Positions 13,849-22,246 of a stretch of 64,000 nucleotides of DNA are shown one piece after another. Positions within the stretch are counted from its first letter, which is position 1. Each line of letters starts with the position of its first letter. The translations under genes and the position numbers were made by a program. Source of the stretch: Myxococcota bacterium (GTDB lineage Bacteria > Myxococcota > SpSt-1050); contig JBMFOP010000001.1 of NCBI GenBank assembly GCA_049969675.1, positions 47,738 through 111,737 of the forward strand, given 5' to 3'. The notes beneath the pieces are model-generated. The model was given only the letters and a program-made list of their open reading frames with translations. It had not been told where the DNA came from and did not search any database.

Positions 13849-13951
13849 GCCTATCTTTTTTCAAAACATTTATAGTTCTTAAGTCTGTAATTCTTGCAAA
13901 ATATCTGGTTTTGTAATATTATTGATGCCTCTTTGTGTGAAAGGAGGATTA

Positions 13952-14467
13952 ATGGGCAAGAGTCCATCAGAGATAAGGCAGGAACAGAGAAAGCCAGTAA
14001 AAGTATTTATTAATTTCAGGACAATAGACCAGTTTTATTCTGAAATAGGGACGAATCTATCTCTCGGAGGTGTATTTGTCAGGTCATCCAATCCGCTTCC
14101 GGTAGGGACCGAGATTAAGATTAGTTTTAATATCCCGCAGTTTGGCTGTTATCTGGAATCTCAGGGAGTGGTGGTGCACAATGGGACTCTGGAGAATCCA
14201 GGTATGGGTATAAAGTTTAAGGGGTTATCAGATAGGGCAAAAAAGCTATTGCAGGATGTGCTGGATCACGAATTGTTGCCGCCAGGGGAAGAGCCGTCAG
14301 ATGGAGAAAAGGGTGAGAGAAAAAAGACTAAAGTTACAGTGACTGTTGAGTCTCAGAATAAAGGAATAAAAAAGGCTAAGAGTTCAAGGACTGTTAGTAA
14401 GAGAGTTTCAAAAAAGGAAATATCAAAAGATTCAAAAAAAACTAAATGTGCAAAACGAAAGAGGTAG
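13952..14467 (+). CDS. PilZ domain protein (myxobacterial TIGR02266-like) with Lys-rich tail
   Basis: RQEQR (RxxxR), NLSLGGVF (N/DxSxxG), GMGIKF; AGGAGG RBS. Confidence 0.85.
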   Translation: MGKSPSEIRQEQRKPVKVFINFRTIDQFYSEIGTNLSLGGVFVRSSNPLPVGTEIKISFNIPQFGCYLESQGVVVHNGTLENPGMGIKFKGLSDRAKKLLQDVLDHELLPPGEEPSDGEKGERKKTKVTVTVESQNKGIKKAKSSRTVSKRVSKKEISKDSKKTKCAKRKR

Positions 14468-14489
14468 AGTATAGTATCATAGGGTTTTA

Positions 14490-15308
14490 ATGATAGTAAG
14501 AGAGCCTAAATATAGTGGTAAATTTTATCCAGAAAAGCCCAGAGTCCTCATCTCTATGTTGCAGGATCTGTACAATAGGGTTGAATTTTCCCGGAAGAAG
14601 ATAAGGTCTAATGGAATCCTGTTGCCACACGCCGCATATCACTACTCCGGGCATGTGGCTATGTCTGTCTTGAAGTGCATAGAAATTCCAGAGAATATAA
14701 TAATCTTTTGTCCAAATCACAATGGACTCGGGGAGGATGTAAATATTGTCTCTGAGGGACGCTTTATAACACCTATTGGAGATGTTGCTATAAATTCGGA
14801 TATTGCAAGGGGTATTATGAAAGATATCCCCGAAGTAAAGGAAGATATAAAGTCTCATCTGATAGAACATTCAATTGAGGTGCAACTCCCGTTATTAAAA
14901 TACCTTAGAAACGATGTAAGAATTGTTCCCATACTTATTAAGAAACTTAAAGCAAATATTCTTACAAAATTGATATCTGATTTTGCAAATTTCTTTAAGG
15001 GTTCTGGTGCTTCTGACATTCTATTTCTCTCAAGCAGTGACCTCTCTCATTATGAGAGATATGATGAGGCAATAAGGAAGGATAAGCTGCTCTTAAAATA
15101 TGTTGAGAAGATGGATATCTATGGGCTCAAAAAGGTAATTGAAGAAGAACATATCTCTATGTGTGGATATGAGGGCACAGCAATCAATATGGAGTTGTGT
15201 CGTCAGTCTGGTGCTACTCAGGGGATAATTAAGAGGTATGATACAAGTAGTTCAAGCGATGGGAATTATGAGAGTGTTGTGGGGTATGCAGGGGCCTGTT
15301 TTGTATAG
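14490..15308 (+). CDS. amrB: AmmeMemoRadiSam system protein B (MEMO1 family)
   Basis: G.FYP, PHA.Y.YSG, EHSIEVQLP, SSDLSHY, SMCG, VVGYA. Confidence 0.92.
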   Translation: MIVREPKYSGKFYPEKPRVLISMLQDLYNRVEFSRKKIRSNGILLPHAAYHYSGHVAMSVLKCIEIPENIIIFCPNHNGLGEDVNIVSEGRFITPIGDVAINSDIARGIMKDIPEVKEDIKSHLIEHSIEVQLPLLKYLRNDVRIVPILIKKLKANILTKLISDFANFFKGSGASDILFLSSSDLSHYERYDEAIRKDKLLLKYVEKMDIYGLKKVIEEEHISMCGYEGTAINMELCRQSGATQGIIKRYDTSSSSDGNYESVVGYAGACFV

Positions 15309-15310
15309 TT

Positions 15311-16864
15311 ATGGATAATGCAAAAGTAAAGGCTTTATATAAAGGTGATATATCCAGAATTAATATCTGTGAGCTTTTGATAAGGCTTGGGGTCTTAAAA
15401 GAGAATGGATATGTGGAGATAATTATTGAAGAGTTGAGGATAAAAATTTATCTATATATGGGGGATATTGTTAATATTGAATCTGATGATATCAATTTCT
15501 CACTTGCGGGATTCTTAAGGAAGAGGAATAGAATCAGTGAAGAGCAGTATGCAGATGTAAAGAAGATGGTGCAGGCTGGAGATAATAGTACTGCAGAGGT
15601 ACTCCTGACCCTCGGGTTAATCAAACCATTTGAGGTTATTCAGTTCATAAACGAATTTCTTATATGTGCTCTCGGCAGGATAGCGACTTTTTCAAAGGGG
15701 ATTTATGTTTATTACAGGATTGAACAGGATGTCTATCCTTTCCCGGTAAATCTGAGATTCAACACAGTAGATGCTGTAAAGAATGTGATATTTAATCATC
15801 TCCCCGATGAATATTTTATAAGGCTCTTTGCAAGACATAATGAGATTGATGTCATATTGCGAAGTTCAGGGCTGACCATTGAGAATGCAAGGCTTGGTCC
15901 AAAGGAGTTGCGATATCTTAAAGCCATCTGTTCTTCAGGGAAATTTGTAGATTATCTCCCTGAAATTAATCCCACTAACTCAGAACATATCTATAAACTC
16001 AGGGCTGCATATTATTTTAAGTTGTGTGCATTTATTGAGATGAGGAGAGGGAAAGAGAGTTTTGAATCAGTATTCCATATTGAGAACCTGAAAGATAATC
16101 ATTTTGGGGAATGTGGAGTGGTTCCCCCGTCAGAAAAGGCTTTAGAAAAAGAGGGATGTAAGATTGATGATGAGGAGGAGAAGAAGATATCAGAGCTGAC
16201 AGCCCTCTTTGAGGAGATGAAGAAGAAGAATTTCTTTGAAAGATTGAATGTCAGCGAAGATGCACAGGATGCCCAGATAAAGAAGGCGTATCTCCTGCTT
16301 GCAAAGAAGTATCACCCTGATATTGTCACTGTTAATGCTTCAAAGAGGATAAAGAAGTGTTATGAGGATATATTTGCACTTATCAACGAGGCGTATCAGA
16401 GGCTTGAGAAGGCAGATTCAAGGAGAGATTATCTGGAATCAATAAAACAGAGTGAGGATGGAAAGTCTGATGTGGATATAGCGAGTATTCTGGAAGATGA
16501 GGCAAAATTTATAAGGGCTAAGGCACTTATCAAGAACAACAGAAATATAGAATCTGGACTTCAGATACTTGAAGATATAATGACGAGAAATCAGGATGAT
16601 GAGTACAGGATTTATTATCTCTGGGGGAAATTCCTTAAAGAGAAGCCTACAGACCCAGCCGTAATAGGGAAGATAATAACATCTCTTGAAATGATTGCAA
16701 AGAAGAAGGAGCTTCCGGACCTCTTCCTGTTCCTCGGTTACCTATATAAAGCAGTCAGGAATGAGGAGAAGATGATAGAGGCATTCAAAAGACTTCTAAA
16801 GCTCGAGCCGAATAATACAATTGCCTCTATTGAGATTAAACTATATGAGAAGAAGAAGAGATGA
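15311..16864 (+). CDS. DUF4388-like + DnaJ (J-domain) + TPR protein
   Basis: IKKAY..LAKKYHPD J-domain, INEAY..L, C-terminal TPR. Confidence 0.85.
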   Translation: MDNAKVKALYKGDISRINICELLIRLGVLKENGYVEIIIEELRIKIYLYMGDIVNIESDDINFSLAGFLRKRNRISEEQYADVKKMVQAGDNSTAEVLLTLGLIKPFEVIQFINEFLICALGRIATFSKGIYVYYRIEQDVYPFPVNLRFNTVDAVKNVIFNHLPDEYFIRLFARHNEIDVILRSSGLTIENARLGPKELRYLKAICSSGKFVDYLPEINPTNSEHIYKLRAAYYFKLCAFIEMRRGKESFESVFHIENLKDNHFGECGVVPPSEKALEKEGCKIDDEEEKKISELTALFEEMKKKNFFERLNVSEDAQDAQIKKAYLLLAKKYHPDIVTVNASKRIKKCYEDIFALINEAYQRLEKADSRRDYLESIKQSEDGKSDVDIASILEDEAKFIRAKALIKNNRNIESGLQILEDIMTRNQDDEYRIYYLWGKFLKEKPTDPAVIGKIITSLEMIAKKKELPDLFLFLGYLYKAVRNEEKMIEAFKRLLKLEPNNTIASIEIKLYEKKKR

Positions 16865-18162
16865 GACTATCGTGTAAGATCGCATATGCTGTATTGGTTG
16901 CATCATTTGTCCTCTCTGCCTGTCAGACAGCCACTCATCTTAAGCCAGAGGGCTGCCAGCAGCAGATAATATTTGAGATACAGGGTATATCACATCCTGT
17001 AAAAGATATTTCAGAAAACAGGGCTCTATTAAGGCTTGAGGGAGAGATATCTGTGGCATCGGTGGGGGATATCATTCCTCATAACAATGTAAAGAAGGCG
17101 GCGTCACAGGGGAATATAGTTCAGGGTGGAAGGAGTATAAATAATGAAGGTTTTGATACCCTTTTTGAGAATGTAAAGGAGTATCTTAAAGCCGATGTCA
17201 CTATTGCAAATTACGAATCACCAATTGCCCCCATAAATGGTTCATCAGGGCAACCTTTTGTATTTAATTCTGATACATCCCTTCTTAGAGCCGCAAGAGA
17301 TGCAAATATCAATCTGTTTAATATAGCAAATAACCACATCTATGATCAGGATATAAAAGGGTTTTTAGAGACGATAGAGAATTTTGAATCGGAGAAGATA
17401 AGATATATAGGCACATATACCGATGATAAGCCACGCCCTCTATTCCTGGAAAGGAATGGGATCAGGGTGGCATTCTTTGGATTTACCACGCTCTTAAATA
17501 ATCAACCCGATTACGGCCGGCTCAGGGAGTATGTTAGAAAGTATATAGGAGAGAAGGATACAGAAGAGATCAGAAAGGCTAAAGAGAAGGCAGATATTGT
17601 GATTGTTTATATACACTGGGGAGAGGAATATAAGAAGGAGCCAGACGAATCACAGATCAGTCTCGCAGATGAATTGATTGAGGCTGGCGCAGATATTATA
17701 ATTGGTGGACATCCACATATACTCCAGCCATTGAGTCTTATAGCCTCAAATGATATGCGGATTGTCCCTGTGGCATTTTCAATGGGAAATTTTATCTCAA
17801 ATCAGAGCCGAAATTATGCATTTCCTATATCCGGTGAAGATGAGGGGAGGACAAGGGACTCCGCAATATTGAGATTTAAGCTAAAAAAATATTCTTACAA
17901 CGACTTTTCCTTTACTGTGGTCTCGGAACTCTATTTTGTGCCTCTCTGGACATACAACAATGATATCCAGTTTTCAAAGGGGGTTGAAAAGAGACTTAAG
18001 ATATATCCATTCCCTATCACGGAAAGGATAGAACAATTGAATAAGGCAATTGTGGTAGAGAAGGATGAAAATAGGAAGAAGGAACTCCTTCTGGAACTTG
18101 AAAATCTGTTGTTGAGGCTCAAATTGATAAAGGGTACACTCGGAGAAGATTATGTAAGATAG
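16861..18162 (+). CDS. CapA family metallophosphatase-fold lipoprotein
   Basis: Lipobox LSAC; VGD, N.E.P, ANNH..D, HWG.EY, GGHPH, S.GNF. Confidence 0.9.
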   Translation: MRLSCKIAYAVLVASFVLSACQTATHLKPEGCQQQIIFEIQGISHPVKDISENRALLRLEGEISVASVGDIIPHNNVKKAASQGNIVQGGRSINNEGFDTLFENVKEYLKADVTIANYESPIAPINGSSGQPFVFNSDTSLLRAARDANINLFNIANNHIYDQDIKGFLETIENFESEKIRYIGTYTDDKPRPLFLERNGIRVAFFGFTTLLNNQPDYGRLREYVRKYIGEKDTEEIRKAKEKADIVIVYIHWGEEYKKEPDESQISLADELIEAGADIIIGGHPHILQPLSLIASNDMRIVPVAFSMGNFISNQSRNYAFPISGEDEGRTRDSAILRFKLKKYSYNDFSFTVVSELYFVPLWTYNNDIQFSKGVEKRLKIYPFPITERIEQLNKAIVVEKDENRKKELLLELENLLLRLKLIKGTLGEDYVR

Positions 18163-18163
18163 T

Positions 18164-18799
18164 ATGAAATACTCTCCAATTATATGGGCATCAGCATATC
18201 TGATAAGCAGGTTAATCAGGAGTTACAGATATGTAGTCAGTAATGATGCTATTGTACAGAATTGCAAAAGACCTCCGGTCTTTGCTCTATTCCATTCTAC
18301 TCAGATGTTGGTTGCAAGTTATAGAACCAATTTTAAGACCAATATATTGGTAAGTCTTTCAAAGGATGGGGAGATAGCAGCACAGGCATTACAGATGCTC
18401 GGCTTTGGAGTGGTAAGGGGTTCTTCTTCAAAAAGGGGTAGAGAGGCACTTGATGAATTGATATTAAAGGTCAGATCCGGAGAATCAGCCGCTATTACAG
18501 TTGATGGTCCACGGGGTCCCTGTGAAGAGGTAAAGAGTGGAATAATAAGACTTGCGTCAGAGTCAAATGCGCCAATAGTTTGTGTATCAGCTGCTGCAAA
18601 GGTTATGTATAGATTAAAGAATTCCTGGGACCGTTTTATAGTTGCACCCCCTCTTTCAAAGGTCTTTATCTCTTTTTCGGACCCCATCACTGTCGATAGA
18701 ATAGTGGATGCTGAAGAGATAAAATTTTTTAAGAGTCTAATAAAAACAAAATTGCGCTCCCTGTTTGAGGATTCTCTCAAAATGGTTCAAAAAATTTAA
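18164..18799 (+). CDS. DUF374 / lysophospholipid acyltransferase family protein
   Basis: S.SKDGEI, VRGSS.K.G, IT.DGPRGP, SWDRF. Confidence 0.9.
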   Translation: MKYSPIIWASAYLISRLIRSYRYVVSNDAIVQNCKRPPVFALFHSTQMLVASYRTNFKTNILVSLSKDGEIAAQALQMLGFGVVRGSSSKRGREALDELILKVRSGESAAITVDGPRGPCEEVKSGIIRLASESNAPIVCVSAAAKVMYRLKNSWDRFIVAPPLSKVFISFSDPITVDRIVDAEEIKFFKSLIKTKLRSLFEDSLKMVQKI

Positions 18800-18832: not shown

Positions 18833-20641
18833 TTGCATAGGTATTATAAAGAGAATCAGGATATTGAAGGACAAAGGCTTGCCTGTGGTAAATATAGTCG
18901 CAGGGTTCTACAGGATCTGCTTAAACTATCAGATATTCATTGTAATATAATTGCAATGGGTTGGGTTGGAAATCGTATAGTGATTGATATTCTCCCACAG
19001 GGTAAAAAAGAGGACTCACTAATCACGCTTTATATTGCAAAGAGGGTAGATACTCAACCATCCCTTTTAAAGACCGACTTTCTGGATATATACTACAGTA
19101 GTAATAAGAATAACGAGGACTTTGCAAGACATATCCTATCTCTTAAGATTAATGATATCACTTTCGCTCAGCTAACGAAGATCTTAAAAGATGACCCTGA
19201 ACTTGGAGACCCATCTCTCTCTATGCCCACATCAGAGGCGGCGGATAGGCCAGAGAATCATCTGGACAGCTGGGGTGGAAGGGATTTATACGCCAATTTC
19301 TTCGCCGAGGGAGAATTTGCCAGAGGACAGTTAGATTCGGTTAATATCTATGAGAATTGTGTCTTTATTCAACATTCTGATATAGAATGCGTCTCGTTAA
19401 GGCCAAATCTGGATTTGAGACTCATTAAGTTTCTGGTAAGATATCCATGGCTCTCCCCAAATCCAGAGAAATATAGTGGTATCAGACGTGATGAACTCCC
19501 GGATGTTAATAAATTCTTCTCTACTGACCTCAGGGAGAAAGATATTATAATGGGGCATAATAAGGTTAGAGATGCACTTGAATATGTCCTTAATAATGTT
19601 AAGAAGAAGAATATCTTCCTCTCCAATACCTGCACCCCTGTTGTGATAGGGGAAGATGTAGAATCTTTAGTAAAAAAGGCTAAACAGAGGAGAAAGGACC
19701 TCTTATATCTTACAGTCACTCCTCAATCAATGGAGGTAGTATTAAAGGACTTATTTAAAATTCCATCTAAAAGAATGAAGAGAAAGGCTCATAATCTGAT
19801 TAATCTTATGGGTTATGAAGATGATAATTACATAAGACAGTTAATAAAGTTTCTAAAAGATTTAGGAATTGAAGTAAATTCTACTGTTATACCTGATGTC
19901 TCAGTAAAGACCCTTAATAAATATTTTAAAGGCGGTGTTGATATACTAAAACCAAATTCTCTCTGGAGCCATCTCTATATGCAACTTAACTCTATGTCTG
20001 GACATAAATATATTTCAATTGACTCACCATATGGCTTTTTCGGGACAATCAGATGGATAATTGAACTCTTAAGAATCCCTGGAAGAAAGATATCTGAGGA
20101 TGAGATAATGAAGAGAATAAAGCCCGAGATCATTGATAGATATTTGAGATTGAGAGAAGCAATGAAATCTATAGGTGTTATCTTCATTGTGAGAAAGGAT
20201 GAAGTTGGATATCTCACCGATTCTGCTAAGTCGTGGGGTGTACCTTTGATAAAGTTCTTCAGAGAGATGGGAAGTAAGATAGAGGTATTCATAAAGGCTC
20301 AAAGCCTTGAAGAGGCAAAGTCTGCATCAACTCAACTATTAGGTTTTATTTCGGATTATCATAATTTTGAGATAAGATATTTTGATTCTTTTGAGAATAT
20401 GATGAGACTGATAAAGAGTAGTATGGCTCAATTGGTTTTTACAAATCATTCAAATGATTGGAGGATAACATCGGGGGGAAAGCATTCTCTCTCACTTACG
20501 GATTTTGAAGTCGGTTTTGAAGGTGCAATATATACAATGGAAAATATTTTGAACCTCGCAAATAATCAATTTTTCAAGAGGTATGCAAGGTATTTACAGA
20601 GGGATTTTAAGGGAAGCTATGAAGAGAGAGAACAAAGGTAG
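18833..20641 (+). CDS. Nitrogenase component 1-like oxidoreductase subunit A
   Basis: QHSDIEC, STDLREKDIIMG, SNTCTPVVIGED, INLMG, PYG..GT..W resemble NifD/NifE/BchN scaffold motifs. Confidence 0.75.
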   Translation: MHRYYKENQDIEGQRLACGKYSRRVLQDLLKLSDIHCNIIAMGWVGNRIVIDILPQGKKEDSLITLYIAKRVDTQPSLLKTDFLDIYYSSNKNNEDFARHILSLKINDITFAQLTKILKDDPELGDPSLSMPTSEAADRPENHLDSWGGRDLYANFFAEGEFARGQLDSVNIYENCVFIQHSDIECVSLRPNLDLRLIKFLVRYPWLSPNPEKYSGIRRDELPDVNKFFSTDLREKDIIMGHNKVRDALEYVLNNVKKKNIFLSNTCTPVVIGEDVESLVKKAKQRRKDLLYLTVTPQSMEVVLKDLFKIPSKRMKRKAHNLINLMGYEDDNYIRQLIKFLKDLGIEVNSTVIPDVSVKTLNKYFKGGVDILKPNSLWSHLYMQLNSMSGHKYISIDSPYGFFGTIRWIIELLRIPGRKISEDEIMKRIKPEIIDRYLRLREAMKSIGVIFIVRKDEVGYLTDSAKSWGVPLIKFFREMGSKIEVFIKAQSLEEAKSASTQLLGFISDYHNFEIRYFDSFENMMRLIKSSMAQLVFTNHSNDWRITSGGKHSLSLTDFEVGFEGAIYTMENILNLANNQFFKRYARYLQRDFKGSYEEREQR

Positions 20642-21962
20642 AAAATTCTCTCAGAGGTTACTGAGCCCATATATGGTGGGAGTCTATCTCGGTGTTAATG
20701 CTGTGAAGGATTTTTATCTGCTTGTAGATGGGCCGGATTGCTCATATATGAAGACCCAATATATAGGAATGAATCAGGACTTCTATGCCAATCTTACAAA
20801 TCTATCTGGTTTTCACAGAATAGGAAATACTGCATTACATCCAATTATGATGGCATCTTCAAGAGAGGAGAAGATTCTCTCTGCTTTATTAAAGATTGCA
20901 AAAGGAGAATTTGTCTCTGCGGTTGGTATCACTCCGATGCCAATGGCAGCGGTTACCGCGGTAGATTATAGTCGGTTATTAAGGGAGGTGAGCAGGAGAT
21001 ATAAAAAACCAACATTTGAGTTCAAGAATAAATCACTCTCGGGGGATTGGATGGATGGTTACATGGAATTCGGGAAGGTGCTTGCATCCAGTATGGAGAT
21101 TGGGAAGGTCAGGAAGAGACGAAGGTCTGTGGCTATAATCGGTTATTTATATGATAGAAACGAATATGATAATATTGCAAATATCGCTGAGCTCAAAAGA
21201 GTCTTTCAGGGGATTGGTGTAAATGTCGCGGGTATATGGTTTGATGGCGGCGGTTTTATGGATCTAAAATCAGTATCTGAGGCTGACCTGATTATTTCGT
21301 TTGGATATCTCAGAGATGCTGCGAGAATCTTATCAGAGCGGCTAAAGACTCCGGTGATGGAATTTGATTATCCAGTGGGGTTTGAGCAGACGGGTGATAT
21401 ATTAAAGAGGGTATCTGAATACTTTGAAATCAGAGACGCATCCACCTTCATTGAGAGAGAGACAGAGGCAATTGTGAGGAGAGTAGAGTCACTTATAGAA
21501 CAATACTTAATACGACTCAGGGTGTTTTATTGTGGGGACCCGATTCTATTTAATTCAATTAAATCAATGCTTGAACTTGTTGGAATGAAGATTGAATATG
21601 CCATTATTTCCAATACATCTGAGAAGTCATCTTATGTAAAGGAGCCAATTAAGAATATTATTTTTGAACCGTCTATCAACGATGTCTTTGAGGTTGGTCT
21701 AAAGATGGCAAGAGAGGATAAGATAGACCTATATGTCGGCAATAGTGATATGAGTTCATACTTTATCGGGAGTGGGAAGGCGGCGGTTGAGATTGGATTC
21801 CCTTCTTATTTCTCGCATTGTATCGCAGAAATCCCTTATGTGGGTTATAGAGGGTATATGCATCTTCTGAACAGGATTATAAAAGAGCTCAGATTTGCTG
21901 AGGTCAGAAAGGTCTTTAGAGAGCAAGGGATAGAGTCATTCATAAAAAATAAAATTTTATAA
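20619..21962 (+). CDS. Nitrogenase component 1-like oxidoreductase subunit B
   Basis: VDGPDC, V.IIG, ELKR....IGV.V, P.GF..T, IGFP...H....PY.GY.G..L; overlaps subunit A. Confidence 0.8.
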   Translation: MKRENKGRKFSQRLLSPYMVGVYLGVNAVKDFYLLVDGPDCSYMKTQYIGMNQDFYANLTNLSGFHRIGNTALHPIMMASSREEKILSALLKIAKGEFVSAVGITPMPMAAVTAVDYSRLLREVSRRYKKPTFEFKNKSLSGDWMDGYMEFGKVLASSMEIGKVRKRRRSVAIIGYLYDRNEYDNIANIAELKRVFQGIGVNVAGIWFDGGGFMDLKSVSEADLIISFGYLRDAARILSERLKTPVMEFDYPVGFEQTGDILKRVSEYFEIRDASTFIERETEAIVRRVESLIEQYLIRLRVFYCGDPILFNSIKSMLELVGMKIEYAIISNTSEKSSYVKEPIKNIIFEPSINDVFEVGLKMAREDKIDLYVGNSDMSSYFIGSGKAAVEIGFPSYFSHCIAEIPYVGYRGYMHLLNRIIKELRFAEVRKVFREQGIESFIKNKIL

Positions 21963-22031
21963 CTTCTGGATATTGCTAACTGTAGATTTTTCTTGAAATC
22001 TTTTTCAGATTGTGTTAGGGTTTCTGCCGCT

Positions 22032-22112
22032 GCCGAAGTGGTGGAATTGGTAGACACGTACGTTTGAGGGGCGTATGCCAGCGGCGTGTGGGTTCGAGTC
22101 CCACCTTCGGCA
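22032..22112 (+). tRNA. tRNA-Leu (anticodon GAG), CCA not encoded
   Basis: Acceptor GCCGAAG/CTTCGGC-A, D-loop GGAATTGGTAGAC, anticodon loop TTGAGGG, variable arm, GTGGGTTCGAGTCCCAC. Confidence 0.96.
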
Positions 22113-22246
22113 TTTTTTTTTGCCTTTACTTGCTTTTTGAAATTATAATTTTACATTATTAATATTTACAATGGATTGAGTAAAGGTTATTATTTATCTG
22201 TTTTGAGGGTTAGCTCTGGTCTGTCTTTTGAGGCAGGTAAGAAGTC

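Follow-up and report, generated by a model that had tools for sequence, protein, structure and literature searches.

Background

The nitrogenase-like reductases of Group VI (NflHDK) are known from genomes named by Meheust et al. 2020 (10.1101/765248), whose main text already reports that their H protein stands next to BchL. According to the main text of a 2026 review (PMC13474568), their D and K subunits retain at most four P-cluster cysteines and lack ligands of the iron-molybdenum cofactor (FeMo-co), no NifB accompanies them, and their function is unknown. The same text describes two enzymes with which they may be compared: dark-operative protochlorophyllide oxidoreductase (DPOR, BchLNB), whose cluster is held by three BchN cysteines and a BchB aspartate, and chlorophyllide oxidoreductase (COR, BchXYZ), for which three BchY cysteines and one BchZ cysteine have been suggested. 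Here we examine two overlapping genes, encoding subunits A and B, in a stretch of 64,000 nucleotides (hereafter the window; contig JBMFOP010000001.1 of assembly GCA_049969675.1, positions 47,738 to 111,737) from a bacterium of the phylum Myxococcota, which a preliminary description had taken for an orphan nitrogenase-like heterodimer without a reductase.

The second system of interest is that of the His-Xaa-Ser (HxS) peptides, HxsABCD (TIGR03976-03978, NF038313). In E. coli it comprises four genes: HxsB, HxsC and HxsD mature the precursor HxsA, the radical-SAM (radical S-adenosylmethionine) step gives +8 Da (+C, -4H) on the His-Xaa-Ser motif, and the product blocks the entry of phage DNA (PMC13128918); the main text of that study does not mention nitrogenase. 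Hxs terms are likewise missing from the main text of both Group VI papers (10.1101/765248; PMC13474568), PMC9062424 in its accessible part names Hxs solely as an annotated family, and no paper linking Group VI to His-Xaa-Ser peptides was found in the literature searched, which covered few subscription papers.

We present good support for assigning A and B to Group VI as NflD and NflK, the catalytic component of a nitrogenase-like reductase, and describe its association with Hxs genes in several sets of genomes. On this basis we put at about even the chance that the reductase acts on the modified repeats of a His-Xaa-Ser peptide.

Results

A Group VI catalytic component and its partner

The two ORFs (open reading frames) overlap on the plus strand and both match PF00148 (A, E 6.7e-29; B, E 2.2e-43). 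They are the only component-1 genes in this genome (3.05 Mb, 99.9% complete), and neither scores above an NCBIfam cut-off for Nif, Vnf, Anf, Bch or Cfb proteins. Modelled with AlphaFold from a 59-row alignment (predicted local distance difference test score, pLDDT, 88), A has the fold of nitrogenase component 1, its best structural matches being MarD (Z 19.8, 20% identity), NifEN (Z 18.7) and BchN (Z 16.3); together with the Pfam matches this confirms that two overlapping component-1 genes are present.

Residue sites were assigned against NifD/E/K and BchN/B/Y/Z taken from annotated plasmids. Cys186 of A (second alpha-type site; NifD C88 and the second BchN Cys) and Cys267 (third alpha-type site) are each invariant in 80/80 A-type homologues, and Cys53, the sole cysteine retained in B and at the second beta-type site, is invariant in 86/86 B-type homologues. 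The first alpha-type site, which aligns poorly, reads Ala158 in A and is Cys in 11 of the 80 homologues. Three of the six P-cluster cysteines are thus missing from the pair, and Pro374 and Thr556 stand where FeMo-co has its Cys and His ligands. In both respects the preliminary description, which had seen two cysteines in A, only that of the DGPDC motif in B, and no FeMo-co ligands, was accurate. Near the cluster site A carries acids at Glu161 (E/D in 75/80), Asp183 (D/E in 79/80) and Glu185 (E/D in 80/80), which are candidates for a fourth cluster ligand, and His181 (His in 66/80), while B carries invariant charged residues distant from the site. The single shared Fe-S cluster of about three cysteines at the A/B interface, resembling that of DPOR and COR, which had been proposed earlier, remains likely, judging from residue conservation.

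With highly divergent D and K subunits, no more than four of six P-cluster cysteines, no FeMo-co ligands and no nifB above cut-off in the genome (one partial match of 32 bits), the pair fits the description of Group VI; the co-occurrence with radical-SAM genes typical of the group is found genome-wide (62 matches) and not beside the pair. In a tree of H proteins, a branch with support 78/77 sets apart the H protein of this genome together with 32 H proteins linked to nflDK, next to BchL (94/89), and these include that of Elusimicrobia GWF2_62_30, one of the Group VI genomes named in the main text of 10.1101/765248. This tree has 43 rows and no group IV references; it was derived from a first tree of 77 rows (quick mode, backbone unresolved) by omitting near-duplicates and the long branches L055, L146, L159, L164, L168, L166_665, L165_4268 and L140_11444, and the branch support argues moderately for a Group VI placement of H. 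A tree of D and K proteins (seven references and the window pair, with 14 homologues of A and 13 of B), whose deep branches are unreliable, places A and B with Elusimicrobia members in an A-type clade (100/100) and a B-type clade (100/99). The nearest named homologues come from Deltaproteobacteria/Myxococcota and Elusimicrobiota assemblies. Four genomes of the same phylum (G008, G017, G024 and G026) were considered as carriers of group IV proteins and rejected, as their H proteins group with BchL and BchX; the BchL- and BchX-type proteins that they encode point to phototrophy genes.

Most of the other families compared fit the pair less well. The six P-cluster cysteines, FeMo-co Cys and His, and nifB that mark nitrogenase groups I-III are not found. 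DPOR and COR resemble it in the probable single interface [4Fe-4S] cluster, the lack of FeMo-co, the coincidence of B Cys53 with the BchZ Cys position and, by our reading of this enzyme, the ATP-driven reduction of an organic substrate. Unlike them, A has only two of the cysteines (Ala158 replacing the first) and an extra N-terminal domain, the proteins form separate clades (H outside those of BchL and BchX) and score below the family cut-offs, and no chelatase gene was found in the genome. CfbCD is set apart by the two differing subunits here and by scores of 294.9 versus 402 for CfbC and 28.1 versus 268.4 for CfbD. MarDK and NifEN are the best sequence and fold matches among solved structures; they depend on a NifB-type protein and bind clusters of P or L type, whereas the ligands and nifB are missing here. 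MAR, ISR and Nfa (groups IV-C, F and A) have no references in our trees, and the 20% identity of MarD, the top structural match, is the comparison available for them.

The genome contains one strong NifH-family gene (G000:C75:2030-2827, on contig C75; E 1e-83), found in the genome search for NifH-like ATPases that the preliminary description had proposed. Its product has an intact P-loop and both cluster Cys motifs, and scores about equally against NifH and CfbC, below both cut-offs. In all four genomes of the genus this H gene lies on a separate contig from the pair, with identical neighbours. Among 41 relatives, the same 16 genomes have component 1 and a NifH-family gene. Of 78 related loci, found by alignment of B with the best 80 of 209 confirmed stretches retained, a NifH-like gene is present in 49, an A-like gene in 75 and at least one radical-SAM motif in 62, and 16 of 59 H-type ORFs run in frame into an A-type domain (Pfam confirms two). 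The role of the C75 protein as the ATP-driven electron donor of the A/B component is therefore well supported. The absence of a reductase holds for the window and not for the genome, and the pair is no orphan: the partner lies elsewhere and its H protein clusters with a described group, albeit one that has been named without biochemical characterisation. The in-frame NflH-NflD fusions (about 800 aa; L133-L166) occur mostly in Elusimicrobiota, and the main text of the 2020 Group VI paper (10.1101/765248) does not use 'fusion' or 'fused' for them.

Co-occurrence with His-Xaa-Ser peptide genes

Of 351 genomes sampled evenly from the phylum, 21 have a B-type subunit and 330 do not (G182 enters as denominator only). 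HxsB scores above cut-off in 21/21 of the former and 27/330 of the latter (39/330 at E 1e-60), and HxsA4 in 18/21 and 11/330; two more of the 21 match HxsA4 below cut-off, and in the remaining enzyme-bearing genome, G070, it was not found. Among 151 genomes of Elusimicrobiota, HxsB occurs in five of the six that bear the subunit and in 9/145 others; in all five, one of which was the chosen centre of the sample, subunit and HxsB share a contig and lie no more than 18 kb apart. Behind the named loci, HxsB is found in 47/50 genomes (50 of 62 intended, one per genome, with all 13 Elusimicrobiota included). The three sets may overlap, and related genomes in them do not count as independent cases. 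The association runs in one direction: where the reductase occurs, Hxs genes nearly always do too, and the reverse does not hold.

Physical linkage is also seen. In 10 of the 21 enzyme-bearing genomes hxsB lies on the same contig as nflK, no more than about 40 kb away, and in G016 the precursor gene follows directly behind nflK. Where relatives have H, D and K clustered, their loci contain HxsB above cut-off, HxsD-like genes, many HxsC/HxsC4-like radical-SAM genes, and a short ORF with a leader followed by His-Gly-Ser repeats and a Trp at the end. A (His-x-Ser)3 pattern in the DNA is present in all 50 named-locus genomes, a noisy measure, and exceeds the reversed control by at least eight in 43. 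The precursor leaders keep a Phe-Leu-x-x-Glu motif across phyla. Many also have a twin-arginine, presumably a Tat-like signal; the genus studied here has Thr-Arg-Gly at that place, and its genome encodes TatC. Locus L174 (G149:C104) has two adjacent precursors with 35 and 59 HxS repeats. In an archaeal assembly of 0.9 Mb (G366, titled Nanoarchaeota; L129 / L223), an A/B pair is present together with an HxS-repeat precursor whose leader has the same motif, and HxsB was not found.

A dispersed pathway in the host genome

In the genome of the window, contig C74 contains a module of a 66-aa HxsD-like gene, hxsB, a precursor gene and a double radical-SAM gene. HxsB reaches 537.9 bits (TIGR03978; cut-off 370) and the precursor passes as HxsA4 (NF038313) with 69.6 bits versus a cut-off of 55. 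The 66-aa gene, ahead of hxsB, has no NCBIfam match and joins HxsD-like proteins in an iterated profile. Several HxsC/HxsC4-like proteins, with scores below cut-off, are encoded in the genome. The genome resembles the HXS system in its HxsB, HxsD-like and HxsC-like proteins and its HxS-repeat precursor. It differs in that no protein of this genome reaches the HxsC cut-off, and in the precursor itself (123 aa, a leader and 15 (His-Gly/Ala-Ser) repeats ending in Trp), which has no peptidoglycan-binding domain; moreover, the characterised system, as given in the main text of Li et al. 2026 (PMC13128918), is without a nitrogenase-like enzyme.

Best matches of the genes that are clustered in eight relatives are found on contigs C1, C75, C74, C31, C16, C132, C61 and C40, with two further ones on C20; most sit well inside their contigs, and those kept are mostly hxs and HxsC-like genes. 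A normally clustered pathway is therefore dispersed over at least eight contigs and yet retained in this genus. The host shares with described Group VI systems an H protein beside BchL, highly divergent D and K, the lack of NifB and many radical-SAM genes; it differs in that the genes are scattered, H is unfused to D, and no de novo tetrapyrrole genes were found. In several relatives a lipoprotein family with an immunoglobulin-like (Ig) domain stands just before hxsD (L214:3361-7014), with a lone best match here (G000:C40:14405-17239). On contigs C44, C52 and C110 of the host genome (L071-L073), radical-SAM genes, each encoding about 470 aa, stand four to five in a row.

The N-terminal domain of subunit A

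The extra N-terminal domain reported for A is real (about residues 10-125) and is found family-wide in A subunits; the main text of the Group VI papers (10.1101/765248; PMC13474568) does not mention it. When 18,821 ORFs from 222 loci are searched with an iterated profile, the domain appears in 68 distinct sequences of D type, 35 with a radical-SAM motif and 5 others, and 0 reversed decoys match; two radical-SAM matches are strong after three rounds (E 7.7e-26 and 1.5e-13). In G006, G032 and G050 the domain is carried by the gene between hxsB and hxsA. No clear fold match was obtained (none with Foldseek at E 0.001, a best VIA Z of 5.5 and no usable Atlas match), which does not show that the fold is new; the domain may have a role like that of an RRE (recognition element for RiPPs, peptides synthesised on the ribosome and modified post-translationally). 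HxsD was rejected as a relative (hhalign probability 0.5%). A single open frame, L127:4513-7356, combines the shared domain with one of NflK and one of radical-SAM type, the only case among 111 K-type ORFs.

Organisation of the locus

Table 1. Features at and around the A/B genes, in window coordinates.
Feature	Position	Strand	Description
nflD-like subunit A	18833..20641	+	602 aa; N-terminal extra domain, then nitrogenase component-1 core
nflK-like subunit B	20583..21962	+	459 aa counted from first ATG; 447 aa from likely start 20619
N-terminal domain of A	18860..19207	+	about 115 aa, alpha/beta, residues ~10-125
Cluster-proximal segment of A	19313..19390	+	Glu161, His181, Asp183, Glu185, Cys186
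Cys267 codon of A	19631..19633	+	position of NifD third P-cluster Cys / BchN third Cys
Cys53 codon of B	20739..20741	+	position of NifK second P-cluster Cys; BchZ Cys35
Upstream co-directional genes	13922..18799	+	PilZ-like TIGR02266 domain, MEMO-type, DnaJ-domain, CapA-like lipoprotein, small protein
tRNA-Leu(GAG)	22031..22113	+	just 3' of the pair

Translation of A starts at a TTG preceded by a Shine-Dalgarno-like GAGGTG, and the start is identical in three congeners. B probably begins at the internal ATG, which has GGGAAG upstream; the database version of the protein has the corresponding length. The upstream co-directional genes and the pair form a probable host operon, their order upstream of the pair being conserved in G001 and G002. 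The lipoprotein among them (16861-18162), which we take to be of CapA type, matches the lasso-peptide epimerase MslH weakly (46.8 bits versus a cut-off of 700) and is probably ordinary. No tRNA was found around the pair in the flanking stretches of three congeners.

Discussion

A possible reductase of peptide repeats

If the co-occurrence reflects a shared pathway, tailoring of the precursor as a RiPP by A and B could proceed as follows. HxsB and HxsC-like radical-SAM enzymes would first oxidise or cross-link the core of the HxsA4 precursor encoded on C74, whose (His-Gly/Ala-Ser) repeats are the most likely substrate. A and B would form a heterodimer with one [4Fe-4S] cluster at their interface, held by Cys186 and Cys267 of A, Cys53 of B and a fourth, non-Cys ligand, and with no FeMo-co; this model is proposed because of the cysteine conservation and the analogy to DPOR and COR. 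The NifH-type protein of C75 would pass electrons to this cluster at the expense of ATP, and the reductase would then add them to a conjugated or heterocyclic bond, repeat after repeat, much as DPOR and COR act on a tetrapyrrole. Such a step is conceivable because the oxidised +8 Da unit of the E. coli HXS peptide (PMC13128918, main text) could be reduced. The broader proposal is that Group VI enzymes would be the first nitrogenase-family reductases to act on a ribosomal peptide, reducing His-Gly-Ser repeats modified by radical-SAM enzymes and recruited via the undescribed domain that they have in common with these maturases, with a product belonging to core physiology; we consider this a little short of an even bet.

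Several observations weigh against a peptide substrate. All evidence for it is guilt by association, and the 21 enzyme-bearing genomes belong to only five families. In 11/330 genomes, near-identical (HGS)n peptides are accompanied by HxsB and not by the reductase, which is thus at most an optional step in such systems, and HxsB is lacking in 3/50 named genomes and 1/6 Elusimicrobiota. Since the clusters extend over 20-45 kb, a distance of 10 kb or less between nflK and either hxsB or the peptide is seen in only 8/78 loci. The HxsB of the host is closest to that of G004 (60%), its D and K are closer to those of G025 and G319, and the two modules therefore do not track each other tightly. A reverse profile built from the non-D copies of the N-terminal domain finds 6/26 A subunits at E <0.003 and not the window protein, whose link to the radical-SAM copies is thus only transitive. 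Finally, the clusters include B12-radical-SAM, glycosyltransferase and carbamoyltransferase genes, possible makers of another substrate.

Alternative functions

The same HxsB and HxsA4 counts would be expected if Nfl were an ATP-driven source of low-potential electrons for the radical-SAM enzymes of the pathway, docking through the N-terminal domain common to A and radical-SAM proteins. The NflK and radical-SAM domains in one frame at L127 and the lack of a second cofactor site in A/B agree with such a role, which we nevertheless judge unlikely. HxsB systems manage without the reductase in the 27 genomes counted above and in the four-gene system of E. coli, the invariant charged residues of B lie away from the cluster, and several genomes have up to four D/K paralogues, so that distinct chemical steps fit better than a single electron supply.

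Almost equally unlikely is a substrate of another kind, be it a small molecule, a lipid or a glycan, that the B12-radical-SAM, glycosyltransferase and carbamoyltransferase genes of the clusters would produce, with the peptide genes only sharing the island. Such genes are indeed present, and many of the 62 radical-SAM matches in the 3 Mb host genome stand in separate runs. Yet among 48 neighbour families found in at least five loci, the widespread Pfam-named ones are Nfl subunits and radical-SAM proteins, the carbamoyltransferase family reaches seven loci, and what the host retains is mostly hxs and HxsC-like genes.

Somewhat less probable again is the published view that a tetrapyrrole is reduced to a novel cofactor, which Meheust et al. 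(2020) propose in their main text and the 2026 review takes up again in its own. The position of H beside BchL, a cysteine pattern like that of DPOR and COR, the presence of hemC in 43 of 55 enzyme-bearing genomes, a TP_methylase-domain gene recurring in about ten loci and the possibility of scavenging tetrapyrroles all agree with it. Its weakness lies in the gene content: since hemB and hemC, like CobN/Mg-chelatase, were not found in the host genome (nor hemC in three congeners), the idea loses force. Of the same 55 genomes, hemC is missing in 12, as against 3 for HxsB. For the TP_methylase neighbour the best match is RsmI, with a score below cut-off, and blastp finds no counterpart in the host genome; the methyltransferases of borosin peptides are relatives of the same family (10.1101/2021.12.24.474128, accessible part).

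That the pair is an orphan heterodimer without a NifH-type partner, as the lack of a reductase gene in the window or on its contig and the mere two component-1 genes of the genome might suggest, is very improbable in view of the C75 gene, the co-occurrence of H, D and K, the fusions, the tree, and the retention of the reductase gene with the same neighbours throughout the genus. A divergent true nitrogenase, which would have the likeness of fold in its favour, is excluded: the pair does not fix N2 because the FeMo-co ligands and nifB are missing, as are half of the P-cluster cysteines and, in a component-1 gene search of the genome, nifEN; the preliminary view that N2 is not its substrate is supported.

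Significance

Group VI is already in print; its link to His-Xaa-Ser peptides was not found in the literature searched. The main text of the 2026 review (PMC13474568) still gives the Group VI substrate as unknown and repeats the tetrapyrrole guess, and the co-occurrence counts presented here, which have backgrounds in two phyla, point to a candidate that is encoded by a gene. The small host genome is of help here: the genes that survive in it, scattered as they are, sketch a minimal set (H, D, K, HxsD, HxsB, HxsA4 and about six more genes of radical-SAM type), and tetrapyrrole synthesis was not found in it. If the reductase does act on peptide repeats, the product might be a polymer that binds metal, a cofactor derived from the peptide or a defence factor of the envelope, and nitrogenase-type chemistry would extend to peptide natural products. 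The genus would then keep the scattered core genes of this pathway while lacking tetrapyrrole synthesis, and the product would be part of its core physiology.

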